Of a stretch of DNA of 32,000 nucleotides, positions 22,824-31,123 are shown one piece after another. Positions within the stretch are counted from its first letter, which is position 1. The number at the start of each line of letters is the position of its first letter. This DNA is from Candidatus Hermodarchaeota archaeon (GTDB taxonomy: Archaea > Asgardarchaeota > Heimdallarchaeia > Hodarchaeales > Hodarchaeaceae): positions 150,001 through 182,000 of the forward strand of contig JBHLKY010000001.1 of assembly GCA_048886185.1 (NCBI GenBank). Reading direction: 5' to 3'. Under the pieces are notes generated by a model, which was given only the letters and a program-made list of their open reading frames with translations, did not search any database and had not been told where the DNA came from. The translations under genes and the position numbers were made by a program.

Positions 22824-23645
22824 GTGAATACAGATGACATTATAAAGGTTGCACTTGACCTAGTGAACATGAATGATCTACCTGCTGACTCAGCCATCTA
22901 TGTTCCTGGAGAAGGCATTTCAAAGGTGCTTTACGGAATAGATATTGGGGCAACTGAGTTGCTTTACGCCAAAAAGCATGAATACGACGCTGTGATCGCA
23001 CACCACCCTGTAGGCGTGGTAAATCAGTTTAAAGTTTTCTATAGACATATGGAACAGTTGGTTTCAAAAGGTGTACCTAAAGAAATAGCTCAAAAGGTCG
23101 TGGATAAGAAGATTCTCGGGCTTAAATTTGGTATACATGCACATAATTATGAAATGATCCCCTCTTTTGCACGATTAATTGGAATTCCTTTTCTTAACAT
23201 TCATTGTCCTTCAGATGAGCTAGGTAGAAGGCTGATAACTACTTCAATAAAAGAATTGGTGGAAAAGAAAGAGAATCCTCTTTTAAGCGAAGTTAAAGCG
23301 CACCTAGAATCTTCTTTTCCAGAATTTCGTGAAGCTCAAACCGTAATTGAGATTGCTAAAGGAAATGGTGACAGTCCACTAGGGAATTGGATTTTTAGTC
23401 ATGGGGCGCTTACTAATGGAGGTTTTAAGATTGCCGAATGCTATTTTCAGCATGATGTTGATACAGTTATCTATATACATATAGCACCGGCTGAATTATT
23501 TCAGATATTAAATTTAAACAGTGGGCAGCTTCTTATTACTGGACATTTAGCTTCTGATTCAATTGGAATTAATCCCTTCTTAGATCGATTAGAAGAAAAT
23601 GGGATTCAAATTACAGCTATTGGTGGATTAATACGTTCGAAGTGA
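22824..23645 (+). CDS. NIF3/DUF34-like dinuclear metal-binding protein
   Basis: KVLYGIDI, DAVIAHHP, NIHCPSDE, GHLASDSIG metal-ligand pattern. Confidence 0.72.
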   Translation: MNTDDIIKVALDLVNMNDLPADSAIYVPGEGISKVLYGIDIGATELLYAKKHEYDAVIAHHPVGVVNQFKVFYRHMEQLVSKGVPKEIAQKVVDKKILGLKFGIHAHNYEMIPSFARLIGIPFLNIHCPSDELGRRLITTSIKELVEKKENPLLSEVKAHLESSFPEFREAQTVIEIAKGNGDSPLGNWIFSHGALTNGGFKIAECYFQHDVDTVIYIHIAPAELFQILNLNSGQLLITGHLASDSIGINPFLDRLEENGIQITAIGGLIRSK

Positions 23646-24204: not shown

Positions 24205-24384
24205 TTAATGTAATTTATATTTGTGAGCTCGCTGTATCCCCATATGAGTCATTAGATTGATGATCTGATGAAATTTAAGTTTTTTTATGCTCTCTTCCCT
24301 TTCTTGTAGGATCAATTCTGTGAAATATTCTTTCATAGCTGGTACGAGATCATGAACCACGTTTGAATTCGGGTTTCTAATCAT
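24205..24384 (-). CDS. 59-aa microprotein paralogous to the C-terminus of the upstream tandem-longin protein
   Basis: Below the ORF-track size cutoff. MIRNPNSNVVHDLVPAMKEYFTELILQEREESIKKLKFHQIINLMTHMGIQRAHKYKLH; 28/51 identical with no gaps to the segment encoded at 24440..24592. Confidence 0.72.
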   Translation of the reverse strand: MIRNPNSNVVHDLVPAMKEYFTELILQEREESIKKLKFHQIINLMTHMGIQRAHKYKLH

Positions 24385-24592
24385 TTAGGGGTCAACAGAT
24401 GATGGTTTCGCCTTATTCGAAATATTATTCCTTTTTCTGAGGCAATCTATATGCTCTTGCTCGTCTGATGCCCATTTGTGTATAATAATTGATAACACGG
24501 TGAAATTCTAACCTTTTTAATTTCTCTCGTTGGCCCTGAATTGATAAATCAATGAAATATTCTTTCATTGCAGGAGCCAAATCATGAGCAAC
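24208..24592 (-). repeat. Diverged tandem duplication of 153 nt (24440..24592 and 24208..24360), period 232 nt
   Basis: Both copies contain atgaaagaatatttca on the minus strand and align codon for codon without indels. Confidence 0.85.
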
Positions 24593-25459
24593 TTCAATAG
24601 GTATTTTGTTCCATTTTCTCAGAAATTTTTGTAATTTTAAGAGTTTTCGGGGATTATTAATCACAAATACGTTTTCTTCAGTTGTTATGAAATCCATTGC
24701 TTGCATAGATTGAGCTCCAAACACAAGACGAGCGGGAAAGGCTTCAAAAAGCAACTGACAATAGTTCACAATAACAGCTGAAAATGCACTTATGAGGGCT
24801 GAATCTAGCGGAGAATCATACTCTAAATGGATTGGTACTCCTGCACTTGAGTGAATGACTCCCCAAGGACGAGACGGTGTTAATGTTGAAAAATGAGTTT
24901 CGAACAGCTCTCTCAACAAGGCATGAAAAAACAGCAATTCTTCAAAACTTAATGCAGAGAAGGAACATTCACCATTCCCCACTGTTACATTTTCATTATA
25001 GGTTACTGCATTTATTGCTTCTTGGAAAAGCTGATCTACGATGTTTTTATCATGATTATTTTCTTCTTGTGAGTAAAATTGTGAATAGATGACTGAAGCA
25101 CCCCCTGCAAGAATACTCCTCATTTCATCCCAAGGAGCAGTTTCTAATTCTATTCGACTCATTAGTCTTGTCGTGACAAGAGGGTCAGAAATAACAATGC
25201 TGAATCTCTTCAATTTACTAGATAGATTTACAATCATAATTTCTCGTGCTTGACTTGGGTGAGGACGAGGATATCTTAACCTTACAATTCCAATTCCCTG
25301 ACCCCACAATTCTGCTCCTAATCTACTGACAGATCTCACGAAATCGAGTGTTTGTTCAAGCTTATCTTGGTTGAGATCACCAAAATGCCATTTCACTTCG
25401 TTTTCACTAGTTAGAATTGCCCAATTATTGAGATATAAACGACGCTGATTAGTAATCAT
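24425..25459 (-). CDS. Putative tandem longin-like domain protein
   Basis: Two segments with a beta-beta-alpha-beta-beta-beta-alpha pattern: NWAILTSENEVKWHF/LDFVRSVSRLGAELW/IGIVRL/EIMIVNL/FSIVISD and WGVIHSSAGVPIHLEY/DSALISAFSAVIVNY/ARLVFG/MDFIT/VFVIN. Start at ATG 25459 with GGAG 11 nt upstream (track start 25498). Confidence 0.6.
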   Translation of the reverse strand: MITNQRRLYLNNWAILTSENEVKWHFGDLNQDKLEQTLDFVRSVSRLGAELWGQGIGIVRLRYPRPHPSQAREIMIVNLSSKLKRFSIVISDPLVTTRLMSRIELETAPWDEMRSILAGGASVIYSQFYSQEENNHDKNIVDQLFQEAINAVTYNENVTVGNGECSFSALSFEELLFFHALLRELFETHFSTLTPSRPWGVIHSSAGVPIHLEYDSPLDSALISAFSAVIVNYCQLLFEAFPARLVFGAQSMQAMDFITTEENVFVINNPRKLLKLQKFLRKWNKIPIEVAHDLAPAMKEYFIDLSIQGQREKLKRLEFHRVINYYTQMGIRRARAYRLPQKKE

Positions 25460-25618
25460 TATAGAATGTTCTCCATGTCTGTTTTTTCTAATGTTCAATC
25501 GTTATCTTTAGTACTTCAATGAGGGGACTAAAAAGGATTTATTTATTAATTATGTAAAATGTAAATAGTAAATTTTCGCAGAATGTTTAGAATTATTTTG
25601 TTGCTTTCAATCTTTTTA

Positions 25619-26896
25619 TTAAGACAGAAATAATATATCATATATTAAGGTGCCATAATAATTTTCAGTTTCAATTATGGTGATTTGCAGTAAATCCATT
25701 GCAGCTTTTTTTCCAACTATCTTAGATAGATTATGTAAAAGTGAGTCCAAAAATGGGAGGAATGCGTTTTGAAAAAGTGGTGTCATTATTTGTGGGCGAG
25801 TATTTAATACAGCTTCTAATTTTTCAAAATATAAGCCTTTCATATAATTTTCTACAAGCTTAGCAATAGTTATTATCCTTCCTTTGTTTTTTGCCCGTTC
25901 TAGCTCATGATTAAATATTGTCTCAAAGATTGTGAAAGTGAAATTTTCTCCAAACATTTTAACCAGTTGGAGGCGAAATAACTTTAGAAATTCTTCAAAA
26001 ACAATTAGTAATAAACCAGAATCAGACAAGAGGCTGATATAACCACTAATTGACAGATATCGAAATAGTTGGATCATCCTCATTTTTTCTTGTGTTGTTA
26101 AATTCGCAGAGAGAGACTTAATTGAATGTCTTCCATCAATTTTTTGAGTAATCTTAATTCCCCATTCTCCCCAATGTTTAAAAATTGTCTGATAGGCCAT
26201 TCCTTGTTCTAATATGATACCGATATGAGCTTTTTCGATTTTAAAAATATCAGTGTTTTTTATTGCAATATCCACTGATTTTAAGTATCCTATCTCTTTT
26301 AATATTGCTGTTCTAGCAATACAATATTCTAATGGCCAATTAATTTTGCGAGAGATTTCTATAATAGCTAATTTCCCATCAAATAATTCCAATAGGGGTT
26401 TGTACTTAGATGGGATCTCTATTCCTCTATTTTTATAAGCTTCATCTTTTATTTGTTTGAAAATAAGGTTCTCATCTAAATGAGATAGCATAAATTTTCG
26501 AGTTAATTCACGAAAAGGAATGTATCTCTGGGTTTGTATATTTTGTTCTTTGATTTCCTTTAAATAATTAAATTCGAAAATATCAATGATTGCTCTAATT
26601 TTTTCCATTAAAATTTGACTTTCATTATCTACTACTAAAATAGCTTCGATTTCTTGACCACGTTCAAACATTATTTTCTTTCCTTCCCTTTCAATCACAT
26701 TTAATGTTCCACTCTCGCTTGATATATTATCCATCATACTATCAGAAAATGTCGAAATAGCATTTACCAATCCTCCTAAAATAATGGAATCAGTACGAGG
26801 AGCATAACTACTAAATTTAATGTCAAAAATTGTCAAACCAGAGATGTTTAACAAAAAATAAATGAGACCAGCTTTATCTAGGGATTCATTACTCAT
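25619..26896 (-). CDS. Longin domain plus two putative winged-helix domains
   Basis: N-terminus FLLNISGLTIF...DSIILGGLVNAISTFSDSM...LNVIEREGKKIMFERG..IEAILVVD fits the Asgard longin pattern; LELFDGKLAIIEISRK...LKEIGYL and QKIDGRHSIKSLS...LSISGYI are wHTH-like. Confidence 0.72.
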   Translation of the reverse strand: MSNESLDKAGLIYFLLNISGLTIFDIKFSSYAPRTDSIILGGLVNAISTFSDSMMDNISSESGTLNVIEREGKKIMFERGQEIEAILVVDNESQILMEKIRAIIDIFEFNYLKEIKEQNIQTQRYIPFRELTRKFMLSHLDENLIFKQIKDEAYKNRGIEIPSKYKPLLELFDGKLAIIEISRKINWPLEYCIARTAILKEIGYLKSVDIAIKNTDIFKIEKAHIGIILEQGMAYQTIFKHWGEWGIKITQKIDGRHSIKSLSANLTTQEKMRMIQLFRYLSISGYISLLSDSGLLLIVFEEFLKLFRLQLVKMFGENFTFTIFETIFNHELERAKNKGRIITIAKLVENYMKGLYFEKLEAVLNTRPQIMTPLFQNAFLPFLDSLLHNLSKIVGKKAAMDLLQITIIETENYYGTLIYDILFLS

Positions 26897-27249
26897 TTTG
26901 GTGCATCATCCAATTTGACGGGACTTGCGGGTTTTTTTGCTTTAGTTTTCAGCTCATCAAAAAATACTGAAATCTTCCATAATCCAAAGAAAACAAACCC
27001 AAATCCTATACTAATCAATACAAGAAAAACTAATTGTACTAAAGGATTCCAAATTGGATCCTGATAGTTTAAAATTGAGATAATTGTTTGAGAAAGCAAA
27101 CCACATGAAATAAAAAATGCTCCTAGGCTAATAATCTTATTACTGGTTCCAAAAATTCCTTCTAACCGAAATTGTTTAGCAGTTGTAACAAGACTAATCA
27201 TCATGCAGCATCCATAAAGCATACCACGAATAATGTCATATTCTTGCAT
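26893..27249 (-). CDS. Small 3-TM membrane protein of unknown function
   Basis: 118 aa with three hydrophobic segments and a charged tail; ATGA overlap with the longin-wHTH gene. Confidence 0.75.
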   Translation of the reverse strand: MQEYDIIRGMLYGCCMMISLVTTAKQFRLEGIFGTSNKIISLGAFFISCGLLSQTIISILNYQDPIWNPLVQLVFLVLISIGFGFVFFGLWKISVFFDELKTKAKKPASPVKLDDAPK

Positions 27250-27444: not shown

Positions 27445-29397
27445 CTAATGATGATTAAAGTACTTGTGGTGAGTTTCTAATTGTTTGATTACTTCTTTTT
27501 TAAATAAATCAGGTAATCTATAAAGCTCAAAAATTAAATCATCTAATGAACAACATAATTCTGATATTTTTCCTTTCTCAGTACAGAATGGACATAATTG
27601 TAAGAAAATCTCTTTAGAAGATGAAAACTGCTCAAGTGACTTGCTAAGGGAAGATACTTCTTCTTCGATTGAAGTGCAAATATCATTTTTCAAAGGATTA
27701 AGTCGAGGTAGGGGTATCAACCCTATATCTGCTGGCGGAACAGCTGCTGTTAGGTTAATCTGATGGATAAACCAGTTTATTAGAAGAGAGTTAAAAATTC
27801 CTAATAATAAATTAGTAGAAACATATATTGAAGTCGAATTACAATCTAAAAGAAAATAATTCAAGTTATTTTCGACCCAAATTCTGTTGTGAGTTTTAAG
27901 GTGGTCTTCCGAGATCAAACCAGAAACAACTCTACGTAATTGTTCTCTAGCAGTAATTCGTTGGAACACAATTCGGGGAGTATTGGCGTGCTTTTTTCGA
28001 AAGATAGTGTTATCCATTGATGATGGTTGTAAGTACCAACGAGGCTTATGGCGATTTTCTGATAGATTGATTATAAAAGGATGGACATTCTTCCCATTTA
28101 ATACAATCTCGAAATTTGAAATGTTATCTTTTTCAAGAATCTTTTTATAGTAAAAAGGTCGGATTTTGCTATCAGCAGGTCTTATTTCTCCGCTTTGAAT
28201 TTTGTATACATCTTTTAAACAGATAGAATTCTTTCTAATAAGCCTAATTATTTCAAATGTTTTAGGGTATGGTGAAGGAATAATTTTATCCTGAAAAAGT
28301 AGAAGGGGGGTTGAAATGTCACCTTCAGTAATTTCACCTAGGACTAATTCTTCTATATTACAGGTTCGTATTATATGAGTTTGCTCTTTTTCTTCACCCC
28401 CTTTCTTCTTCTGTAAAACTAATAAGCAGGTTCCTTGAAGAACATTAGGAAAGATATGAGTTCGACTTACAAAATCAACCACTTCGCGTAAATGGAATTG
28501 CGAGAGAAGGAATTTACGAACCTCTACACTATAATAATCAGTCAATACTGAATTTGAAGTTAAGAAAGTTGCGATTCCATCTGAAGTCAAAAGCTCATTC
28601 ACACGGGTTAAAAAAAGGTGATAAAGATTAAATCGATTAATAAATATCTGTTTTTGGTATAATTGGCGATAAATTTGGTTATCTTTTGATGAAATATCTT
28701 TTGTTACATAGGGTGGATTACATAAAACGAGATTAAAACCTTTATTTTCATGATTAAAAATTCTTGGAAATTCCTTATACCAATGAAAAAATTGATTTTC
28801 GTTAATACTTAATTCTTCTTTCTGGAGTAATTCAAGAAATCTTTTTTGATCTTCAGGTTTAGTACTTCCAAGTAAGACATTACCATGCCTAATCTGGTGA
28901 TTTAAAGTGTTCTGCACTTCTTTGAGCTTATTTTGAGTTAAATTGGATTCATTTTGTCCTAATAACCATTTTTTTAGCTCCTTTTGGCAAGTATGAATTG
29001 CTTTAGGATTAAAATCTACTCCATGTAAATTGTTCTGGATTATCTGAAATCTAACATCTGTTGAATCTGAGGAATTACAATGAATTGCTTCTAGAAATTT
29101 ACCTGCTTCTAAAAGAAAAACTCCATTTCCAACTCCAAGATCGAGAATTTTGATATCCTTTATTAGCTCTTGCATTTGTAGGCGTGTTGAATAATTAATG
29201 GTATCTTTAGGAATTTTTGATGCTGTTACCTGTGATAAGAATTTCAATAATAATTTTTTAGGTAATCGTTGGTGAAAAAATTGTTGGAATGCCGACCAGA
29301 CCACAAATTGAGCTAGTATGGTTGGTGTGTAATAGGTACCAAGCGATTCTTTCTTATTTGAGGATTTCACTTGTAACACCTGGTGAGACCCGTTCAT
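27445..29397 (-). CDS. Gamma-class N6-adenine DNA methyltransferase (M.TaqI/Eco57I-like) with C-terminal target-recognition domain
   Basis: GTYYTP, motif I LDLGVGNGVFL, HGVDFN, FHWYKEFP, motif IV LCNPPY, IVFQRIT in the C-terminal domain. Confidence 0.9.
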   Translation of the reverse strand: MNGSHQVLQVKSSNKKESLGTYYTPTILAQFVVWSAFQQFFHQRLPKKLLLKFLSQVTASKIPKDTINYSTRLQMQELIKDIKILDLGVGNGVFLLEAGKFLEAIHCNSSDSTDVRFQIIQNNLHGVDFNPKAIHTCQKELKKWLLGQNESNLTQNKLKEVQNTLNHQIRHGNVLLGSTKPEDQKRFLELLQKEELSINENQFFHWYKEFPRIFNHENKGFNLVLCNPPYVTKDISSKDNQIYRQLYQKQIFINRFNLYHLFLTRVNELLTSDGIATFLTSNSVLTDYYSVEVRKFLLSQFHLREVVDFVSRTHIFPNVLQGTCLLVLQKKKGGEEKEQTHIIRTCNIEELVLGEITEGDISTPLLLFQDKIIPSPYPKTFEIIRLIRKNSICLKDVYKIQSGEIRPADSKIRPFYYKKILEKDNISNFEIVLNGKNVHPFIINLSENRHKPRWYLQPSSMDNTIFRKKHANTPRIVFQRITAREQLRRVVSGLISEDHLKTHNRIWVENNLNYFLLDCNSTSIYVSTNLLLGIFNSLLINWFIHQINLTAAVPPADIGLIPLPRLNPLKNDICTSIEEEVSSLSKSLEQFSSSKEIFLQLCPFCTEKGKISELCCSLDDLIFELYRLPDLFKKEVIKQLETHHKYFNHH

Positions 29398-29412
29398 TTC
29401 AACAATAATTAT

Positions 29413-30213
29413 TTATAGAAAGCTGTCTAGATTGATGATTTGACTCCGATTAATATATTCAAGTCGAGATTGAAAAGATTTGGCATTTTCCAAATTCTTC
29501 TGAGACTCAAGAACATATTCTGGATTGATTTCAATCCCTAGATATTTGCGATCGAGGAGTTTAGCTACGATTGCAGTTGTTCCTACTCCAAGAAAAGGGT
29601 CGAAAACTAGGTCTCCTTCATCAGAAGATGTCAGAATTATCCTTTCCATGAAAGTTAAAGGTAATTGAGTAGGGTGTTTATCATGTCTCTTCTTTCTATG
29701 CTTGATTCTATAAATATTAGTCCAGATATCTGAAAATGGCTTTTCTATCAAAGGAGTATTGATTCGTTTATCAATACATTGTGCTCGTGCGCAATGAGTC
29801 CAATTATGCTTAGAAGTTAATTTGTTGAACGTGTACTTCTTGTTTGATTTTGTGTAGAAAAGTAATGAATAATGAGCAGGCATTATCTTACCACGGGGAG
29901 CTGATAAAGCATCCCAAGCGATGGTATTTTGTCGAAATAAGAATTTATCTAAAAAAACTGCATGATTAATAGCCCATTTTGGAAGATTTAATAGATAGAA
30001 CGATCCGTCTGGCTTTAATAATCGTACTATTTCAATAATCCATTTTTCAGCCCATTTAAGATAATTTTGAGTGGTAGTGGAATCATCATATATACCATAA
30101 TCTTTCTCCAGATTATAAGGAGGATCTGCAAAAGCTAAATCGACTATGCCTGAGGGAAGGTTTTTCATTTCTTCAATGCAATCCCCATTGATAATTCGAT
30201 TTTCAAAACTCAT
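29413..30213 (-). CDS. Beta-class N6/N4 DNA methyltransferase
   Basis: IINGDCIEEM, motif IV FADPPYN preceding HPTQLP and motif I VFDPFLGVGTT, YLGIEIN; own SD GGAGTGA 6 nt before the ATG. Confidence 0.93.
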   Translation of the reverse strand: MSFENRIINGDCIEEMKNLPSGIVDLAFADPPYNLEKDYGIYDDSTTTQNYLKWAEKWIIEIVRLLKPDGSFYLLNLPKWAINHAVFLDKFLFRQNTIAWDALSAPRGKIMPAHYSLLFYTKSNKKYTFNKLTSKHNWTHCARAQCIDKRINTPLIEKPFSDIWTNIYRIKHRKKRHDKHPTQLPLTFMERIILTSSDEGDLVFDPFLGVGTTAIVAKLLDRKYLGIEINPEYVLESQKNLENAKSFQSRLEYINRSQIINLDSFL

Positions 30214-31123
30214 AAGGATTCACTCCATCATAAGGAGCAAGAAGTAGAGTTGATGTAGAGGTGCATGATAAGTCAACTAATCGTTTTAAGACTGAAGAAA
30301 GTAGCGGATTTACTGTAATCAGTTGATTAGAAGAAAAATCTGGATGCCAAATGTCTGATAATACCATTCCATTTCTATGTCTAAGGTGTTTTTTTCCGCC
30401 ATAATCTTTTAGTGGTTTATTACAAAAGGAGCAAAAACGATATGGTATCCTAACACGATTAATTCTGAATTTTTTAGGAGATTTCACATAATACAAGATA
30501 CAATTTGCTTCTGATTTGTATTTTCTTGAAACATCAACATGAGGGATTTCCTCTGAATAAACAATCCAATATTTAAAATAAAGACCTAAATGATTAAGTT
30601 TAACACCAAAATAAGGTAAATAACGAGGAATTGAATGGATCAAAACATTTCCATTGGATTTTAGAATCCGTAAAGTCTCCTCTAGGTAGCCATAAACTTC
30701 TTTTATAAGTGATGAATTAGAAATGTTATGATATGACGAAGTATCTTGTTTCTCCTTAAATGTAAATTTTGGAAAAAGAATCCACGTATCAACACTTTGA
30801 TCCTTAATTTCAGCTAATTTCTTCATTTCAGACGATTGTAATACTATAAAGTTTGATGGAATGATATCCTTAACACTGTCCCTTCTATGTTTACGTGCTA
30901 GAAAACGTTCCTTTCCTGCCTCAGGATCCTTAATATTGTAAACTGCCATCAACTCTGATAATTTGAAGAATCCTTTTACCTTTAAGGGATTTTTAAGCTG
31001 TGTTCCATTTTTGTCATACTTTTTTAATAAACCACGTTCTATTTGTAGTCGGATGTTCTCCTCCGCATGATTGGAATAAATCACTGCATCTTTCAATGTT
31101 ATAAAACGATCACGTTTAGGCAT
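30203..31123 (-). CDS. HTH-fused degenerate beta-class methyltransferase homolog
   Basis: HTH-like N-terminus (ITLKDAVIYS...NIRLQIERGLLKKY); MTase-fold landmarks EIKDQSVDT, RILKSNGNVLI, FKYWIV, LKDYGG, LSDIW; motif IV reads FPKF and motif I reads APYDGVN followed by a stop. Confidence 0.75.
   Translation of the reverse strand: MPKRDRFITLKDAVIYSNHAEENIRLQIERGLLKKYDKNGTQLKNPLKVKGFFKLSELMAVYNIKDPEAGKERFLARKHRRDSVKDIIPSNFIVLQSSEMKKLAEIKDQSVDTWILFPKFTFKEKQDTSSYHNISNSSLIKEVYGYLEETLRILKSNGNVLIHSIPRYLPYFGVKLNHLGLYFKYWIVYSEEIPHVDVSRKYKSEANCILYYVKSPKKFRINRVRIPYRFCSFCNKPLKDYGGKKHLRHRNGMVLSDIWHPDFSSNQLITVNPLLSSVLKRLVDLSCTSTSTLLLAPYDGVNPYEF

Follow-up and report, generated by a model that had tools for sequence, protein, structure and literature searches.

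A relocating pair of genes for a small membrane protein and an NPRL2/NPRL3-like protein, next to a resident gene and a probable paralogue relic in a Hodarchaeales genome

Four open reading frames on one strand

We analysed a 32,000-nucleotide stretch (the window) of a Candidatus Hermodarchaeota assembly (GCA_048886185.1, contig JBHLKY010000001.1, positions 150,001 to 182,000), in which four open reading frames (ORFs), here called A, B, C and D, follow each other in that order on the minus strand. A encodes a small membrane protein, B a protein with a longin domain and winged-helix-type repeats, C a protein with two longin/roadblock-like domains, and D a short peptide. The original prediction for this locus described the same layout and proposed that the four products form one complex, made up of a membrane anchor, two longin subunits and an inhibitor peptide, that acts on a GTPase. 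An ORF check of the window confirms the layout, including the four-nucleotide ATGA overlap of A and B, the gap of 159 nucleotides between B and C (counted to the ATG of C at 25459; an alternative in-frame TTG start at 25498 would give a protein of 357 amino acids) and the gap of 40 nucleotides between C and D. The history of the stretch is very probably a composite one, in which three independent things have come to lie side by side: the A-B unit, the resident gene C, and the relic D.

Genes A and B are inherited as a unit

A was detected in nine of the 22 genomes of the genus, and a search of 61 other genomes of the class found it in none. It lies directly upstream of B in every one of the nine, with gaps of -4 to +62 nucleotides, and the pair is found in five contexts: here and in G009; in G005; in G002; in G010, G007 and G021; and in G001 and G016. 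Across these relocations the order is kept at 41-86% (A) and 50-87% (B) identity. At the site where G002 carries A-B, G013 retains only a relic of the tail of B, and A was not found in that genome. The fixed order, the overlap or short gap, the five contexts and the joint loss establish A-B as a unit of inheritance that has been relocated several times.

C is not part of this unit. Apart from this genome, only G009 and the metagenome contig L108 have B directly ahead of C, and in the single-contig genome G010 the two genes are 39 kb apart on opposite strands. Conservation of the gene neighbourhood, which the original prediction had named as a check, thus fails for the four genes taken together. 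Upstream of A lies a methyltransferase cluster (window 27445-31123) that directly precedes C in five relatives, which identifies A-B as an inserted element: in this lineage the pair was inserted upstream of a resident C.

Gene C, a resident beside YbaK

C is independent of A-B. Orthologues with 59-83% identity occur in 20 of the 21 other genomes of the genus, most of which have two to six matches to the family, and 13 genomes, some of them 91-99% complete, hold C without A-B. Of the 17 loci that are assembled on the YbaK side, 16 have this gene no further than three genes from C; YbaK is context, outside the A-B unit. A NIF3/DUF34-like gene (window 22824-23645; a weak Pfam match, E 5e-4) is found near YbaK and C in many relatives. 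On the upstream side the neighbour of C varies, and may be the methyltransferase cluster, a three-gene zinc-ribbon operon, a reductase, or A-B. The three-gene operon (L031:1816-7866, L036, L039, L049, L110 and L111) encodes proteins of about 293, 570 and 1180 amino acids, of which the largest has an N-terminal zinc ribbon and the first two have no Pfam match. It is divergent from a 140-amino-acid gene and a MinD/ParA ATPase, and its copy in this genome is on contig C24.

Of 24 C homologues, 15 have a box of the form AAAN(1-3)TTTWWA at much the same distance ahead of the gene, compared with 1.3 in shuffled sequences. Here the box (AAATCCTTTTTA, 25540-25529) falls within the B-C gap. It is kept whatever gene stands upstream of C, and none was found ahead of D. 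The box resembles an archaeal TFB recognition element (BRE)/TATA element; because it shows no clear enrichment before genes genome-wide, we regard it as a candidate promoter only. It suggests that C is transcribed separately from A-B, and C probably has a promoter of its own. A scan for sigma-70-type promoters and terminators, a model ill-suited to archaea, gave results at chance level.

The structure model of C (pLDDT, the predicted local distance difference test, 85) consists of two alpha/beta domains with the strand-helix order of longin and roadblock domains, plus helices. Domain 2 begins with the Asgard longin signature and matches the profile of Asgard longins (hhalign 71%, E 3.6e-5, 39 columns). 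Domain 1 reaches just Z 6-7 against roadblock/longin folds, so that the description of C as a tandem longin protein is moderately supported. No internal repeat between the two domains was detected by hhalign. Tri-longin Rab guanine nucleotide exchange factors (GEFs; Mon1-Ccz1, Fuzzy-Inturned, HPS1-HPS4) likewise carry repeated longin-like domains and were the best Foldseek matches of C, although weak ones (E 1e-4 to 1e-2); over the whole chain the comparison gives a Foldseek E of 1.1e-4 with a template modelling (TM) score of 0.21, and a VIA Z of at most 7.0. Unlike these exchange factors, C is predicted to have two longin-like domains rather than three. Structure models like that of C were found only in other unnamed Asgard clusters. 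Homologues from the sister family are longer (500-590 amino acids) and carry about 200 additional residues that fit no known family (L022:826-2514, L023:260-2035).

ORF D and the lost paralogue C2

Residues 9-58 of D are 56% identical to the tail of C and 78-88% identical to the tails of full-length copies of a paralogue, C2. D falls inside the C2 clade with an ultrafast bootstrap (UFBoot) value of 99, as a 51-residue fragment placed on the full-length alignment with a midpoint root. A full-length C2 occupies the position of D in G010 and L110, C2 is frameshifted in L108, which has the A-B-C order, and L111 carries a different frameshifted C2 relic of 65 codons. These comparisons show, at the level of sequence, that D derives from C2, a tandem duplicate of C, and D is most likely the tail left after most of C2 was deleted. 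Nothing therefore points to the inhibitor peptide of the original prediction.

No stand-alone D ORF is present in the 21 other genomes of the genus, where the matches are tails of frames of 340-394 codons or pieces at contig edges. D is called as a gene in two of the five same-species contigs shown; the DNA is identical in all of them over this stretch. A recent copying of the neighbouring C was considered as the source of D and rejected: D belongs with C2, and its synonymous sites are close to saturation when compared with C. The synonymous changes that separate D from C go back to a pair of full-length paralogues and are therefore no sign of selection on the peptide. The tandem C1/C2 pair collapses repeatedly: G014 (L033:2549-3640) and P0007 each have a C1/C2 chimera with a front that is 91% C-like and a tail that is 90% C2-like.

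Features and surroundings of the locus

Table 1. Features of the locus (window positions)
Feature	Position	Strand	Remark
Gene A, 118-amino-acid three-helix membrane protein	26893-27249	-	Fixed upstream partner of B
Gene B, 425-amino-acid NPRL2/NPRL3-like protein	25619-26896	-	By sequence, member of a pan-Asgard longin-wHTH-wHTH(-helical) family (wHTH, winged helix-turn-helix)
B longin domain, residues ~10-138	26483-26869	-	No GP motif; R79 not invariant
B tandem winged-helix-type repeats, residues ~142-212 and ~213-292	26021-26473	-	Basic, isoelectric points (pI) 8.8 and 9.6
B C-terminal helical domain, residues ~293-425	25622-26020	-	Seen in the whole-protein model
AAATCCTTTTTA box, candidate BRE/TATA-like promoter element of C	25529-25540	-	Conserved upstream of C homologues
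Gene C, 344-amino-acid Hodarchaeales protein, two longin/roadblock-like domains and helical tail	24425-25459	-	Resident beside YbaK
ORF D, 59 codons; codons 9-59 correspond to the 3' end of the lost C2	24205-24384	-	Most likely a deletion relic
YbaK/aminoacyl-tRNA editing gene, PF04073	23659-24138	+	Conserved convergent neighbour of C and C2

None of A, B, C and D has a Pfam match above the cut-off, and no Rfam match was found. Close homologues of B and C carry Hodarchaeales or Heimdallarchaeota names. The original prediction stated that the window holds no small GTPase, and no Ras-family match was found in it; the genome holds 63 such matches, of which the nearest on the same contig is about 20 kb away, and Rag-like GTPases are present. 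No particular GTPase could be tied to the locus in this analysis.

Gene B and its family

The model of B (pLDDT 74; predicted TM score, pTM, 0.63) opens with a longin domain, continues with two winged-helix-type repeats and ends in a helical domain, in agreement with the longin and double winged-helix architecture originally proposed. The longin fold is clear (VIA Z 11.8-12.3, root-mean-square deviation (rmsd) about 3 A over about 123 residues). In a Foldseek search with the whole protein the nine best matches are chains of GATOR1 or its yeast counterpart SEACIT, the best with an E of 4.9e-6 over about 340 columns and with TM scores of 0.2-0.3, and residues 129-425 align with NPRL2 (8fw5_B) with a Z of 8.6 and an rmsd of 5.6 A over 165 residues. 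A profile of the winged-helix region of the family matches yeast Npr2 (E 4e-4) and human NPRL2 (E 3e-3). Profile searches with B reach a wider family that shares both winged-helix repeats, and the B-family profile matches 128 of 201 sampled Asgard genomes at E <= 1e-25, the weaker of these matches probably covering part of the protein only. Judged from these profiles, B is a member of a pan-Asgard longin-wHTH-wHTH(-helical) family. The Pfam family NPR2 (PF06218) has no match in B or in 26 orthologues, and it is not one of the 25 Pfam families in the list for the wider family; it also has no match in the genome itself, where the control matched nowhere either. Close B orthologues gave no match when their sequences were searched against solved structures.

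In B, as in NPRL2 and NPRL3 (yeast Npr2 and Npr3), the longin subunits of GATOR1/SEACIT, the longin domain is N-terminal, and a C-terminal lobe, possibly homologous to theirs, comes after it. B differs from them in having no GP motif, no clearly invariant arginine finger, no match to the Pfam NPR2 family and no other full-length paralogue detected in its genome, in being paired with a three-helix membrane protein, and in ending with a helical domain of its own. The GP motif marks the catalytic subunits of longin GTPase-activating proteins (GAPs) (PMC12290439). Before strand 2 of the longin domain, a position matched by secondary structure, it is absent from B, and the orthologues have G20-L21; the wider family has G-x-P or G-x-C at this place. 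FLCN/SMCR8-type longins of Heimdallarchaeia, proposed relatives of the eukaryotic longin GAPs, do have both the GP motif and an arginine finger (PMC12290439), and at the equivalent strand start they differ from B in carrying G-P rather than G20-L21. Two arginines of B are candidate counterparts of the arginine finger R78 of NPRL2. The position of R79, where strand 4 ends, holds an arginine in 22 of 27 orthologues and in seven of 32 members of the wider family, and that of R70 in all 26 orthologues that have a residue there and in 14 of the 32. B probably does not act as a GAP with an arginine finger, and in its working it may resemble an NPRL-type scaffold. Apart from B, no full-length member of the family was found in this 96% complete genome, and the other matches are to the longin domain only.

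In passages of Liu et al. (10.1101/2020.10.19.343400), Asgard NPRL2-like proteins are described as a longin domain joined to an NPRL2-type C-terminal part, present in most Thor and a few Loki genomes and tied to two-component signalling domains. The wider family of B matches the proteins described there in build, distribution and two-component neighbours. Those passages mention neither a Hodarchaeales subfamily nor a fixed small membrane partner.

Gene A and the neighbours of distant B homologues

A was originally described as a protein with three transmembrane helices, and this holds for most of its orthologues, in which three helices exceed the hydropathy threshold of 1.6; in A itself two do so, and the weaker N-terminal helix peaks at 1.53. 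The outer loops are very short. Conservation is concentrated in loop 1, which is basic and rich in Gly, and in a C-terminal W-K-x-x-x-F-F-D-E segment just after helix 3, both of which, by the positive-inside rule, probably face the cytoplasm. With its short outer loops and its conserved residues on the presumed inner side, A looks more like an anchor that offers a docking face than like a receptor that binds a ligand. The idea of a membrane anchor survives for A with B, and not for the four genes as a whole. A place for A in a known archaeal three-helix family was a guess that Pfam does not support. Prediction of an A-B complex (score 0.03, mark 0.32) gave no answer and is counted neither for nor against an interaction.

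Neighbours of B were also compared in 47 loci of distant B homologues, a sample of top matches that is rich in one lineage and contains kin that are not independent. Membrane proteins account for 22 of the 50 close co-oriented neighbours of the B homologues compared with 28 of the 203 other genes in these loci, and make up 14% of the proteins in the present genome. Given the bias of the sample and the kinship within it, we treat this excess as a tendency and not as a test. The other neighbours include receiver domains, PAS-kinases, ODP proteins and roadblocks, and many of the distant B homologues do not adjoin a membrane protein.

Possible function of the A-B pair

As a whole, the locus is best explained, with somewhat better than even confidence, by the composite history together with an adaptor mechanism for A-B. 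For the mechanism itself, that A tethers B as a membrane-coupled adaptor, we put the chances at about even. A and B would be co-translated, and the conserved cytoplasmic face of A would hold B at the membrane. The longin domain of B would dimerise, probably with itself, since the genome yielded no other full-length member of the family, and the winged helices of B would bind proteins, as they do in the C-terminal lobe of NPRL2/NPRL3. In this way B could relay a cue from the membrane to a partner encoded elsewhere, either a two-component part or a small GTPase.

Several observations weigh against this explanation. Profile comparison found no similarity between A and five small proteins with three helices that adjoin distant B homologues, and the 22 membrane neighbours fall into about 12 groups unrelated to one another, of which five consist of small proteins with the size and build of A. 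Regulators of the Lrp and MarR types score level with NPRL2 on the winged-helix profile. The tail of D is barely more diverged than the tails of intact C2 copies: the proportion of nonsynonymous differences (pN) is 0.054-0.067 for D and 0.032-0.045 for intact C2, with similar synonymous proportions (pS). Relaxed selection on D could not be demonstrated, one rare substitution (R54H) being observed. Such low divergence fits a recent deletion, but it also fits a retained peptide. As D is little decayed, a recent deletion is the simple reading, and we consider a retained function for D to be very unlikely.

The winged helices of B could instead bind DNA, in which case A-B would be a membrane-sequestered transcription regulator with the longin domain as its sensory or dimerisation head, and A would keep B at the membrane until a signal sets it free. 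The basic character of the repeats, the level scores of Lrp, MarR and TrmB-type regulators with NPRL2 on the family profile, and the receivers and PAS-kinases that often adjoin B homologues all speak for such a regulator. The whole-length structure search, however, favours NPRL2/NPRL3, and the finding that the C-terminal lobes of these proteins bind other subunits (PMC9646525) counts against DNA binding as well. No operator site was found, no search aimed at one having been made. We consider such a regulator unlikely. A different partner for B is offered by C: the two could pair in trans through their longin domains, anchored by A, and this heterodimer could act as a GEF or GAP on a Ras- or Rag-like GTPase, adjacency being helpful but unnecessary. 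Both proteins have longin-type domains, small GTPases are plentiful in the genome, and the GTPase genes of MK-D1 do not as a rule share an operon with longin or roadblock genes (PMC10933270). A C orthologue is found in eight of the nine A-B genomes, but since almost every genome of the genus has C, this co-occurrence is uninformative. The 13 genomes that hold C without A-B, and the lack in B of a GP motif and of an invariant beta4-beta5 arginine, make the heterodimer highly improbable.

Whether A and B touch at all is questioned by the view that the two genes merely move together in a small mobile unit, through shared regulation or hitch-hiking, while their products do not interact physically. 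Their patchy presence (nine of 22 genomes) in varied contexts would fit, as would the many distant B homologues lacking a membrane neighbour. An order held through relocation at the identities given above and the joint loss of the two genes argue for more than this, and we give mere co-travel little credence. The proposal of one four-gene operon, whose products (an anchor, two longin subunits and the inhibitor peptide D) form a single GTPase-regulating complex, is largely refuted and appears exceedingly improbable. The shared strand and short gaps, the A-B-C order also seen in G009 and L108, and the open, little-decayed frame of D are in its favour, but synteny breaks beyond the closest relatives, a frameshifted C2 takes the place of D in L108, D stands alone in one of 22 genomes, and the C-linked box interrupts the B-C gap with none before D.

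The proposed four-part module is mostly an accident of gene order and should not be pursued as a unit. A-B is a small, expressible two-protein system that raises the question of what NPRL2-like proteins do in Hodarchaeales, with membrane adaptor, DNA binder and GTPase regulator as candidate roles, and so bears on the origin of GATOR1. The build of B-type proteins has already been published for Asgard archaea, and the gain is a moderate one. A broader and quite doubtful proposal is that Asgard NPRL2/NPRL3-like longin-winged-helix proteins are general cytoplasmic adaptors of interchangeable membrane inputs, A-B being a minimal version in which the 118-amino-acid three-helix anchor would bring a homodimeric proto-GATOR1 core to the membrane to regulate a Rag- or Arf-like GTPase there. 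If true, it would concern the lineage closest to eukaryotes. D, for its part, illustrates how the relic of a tandem duplicate is able to mimic a selected microprotein.

Other arrangements of B-family genes

Further arrangements were observed among the loci of the wider family. In one, a B-family gene is followed by a gene for a conserved membrane protein of about 260 amino acids with seven to eight helices and no Pfam match (L129, L133, L143, L149, L153, L155, L158, L160, L162 and L169). This pair is mostly divergent from a ZPR1-like gene, and is larger and more widespread than A-B. B-family genes also directly adjoin genes for ODP-family proteins, receivers and PAS-histidine kinases (L136:2138-4197, L167:2924-4932, L145, L146, L157, L144 and L159). 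In another family of Heimdallarchaeia, the gene that precedes the B homologue encodes a Roadblock/LC7 protein and not a membrane protein (L100:6432-8153, L101, L102 and L138).

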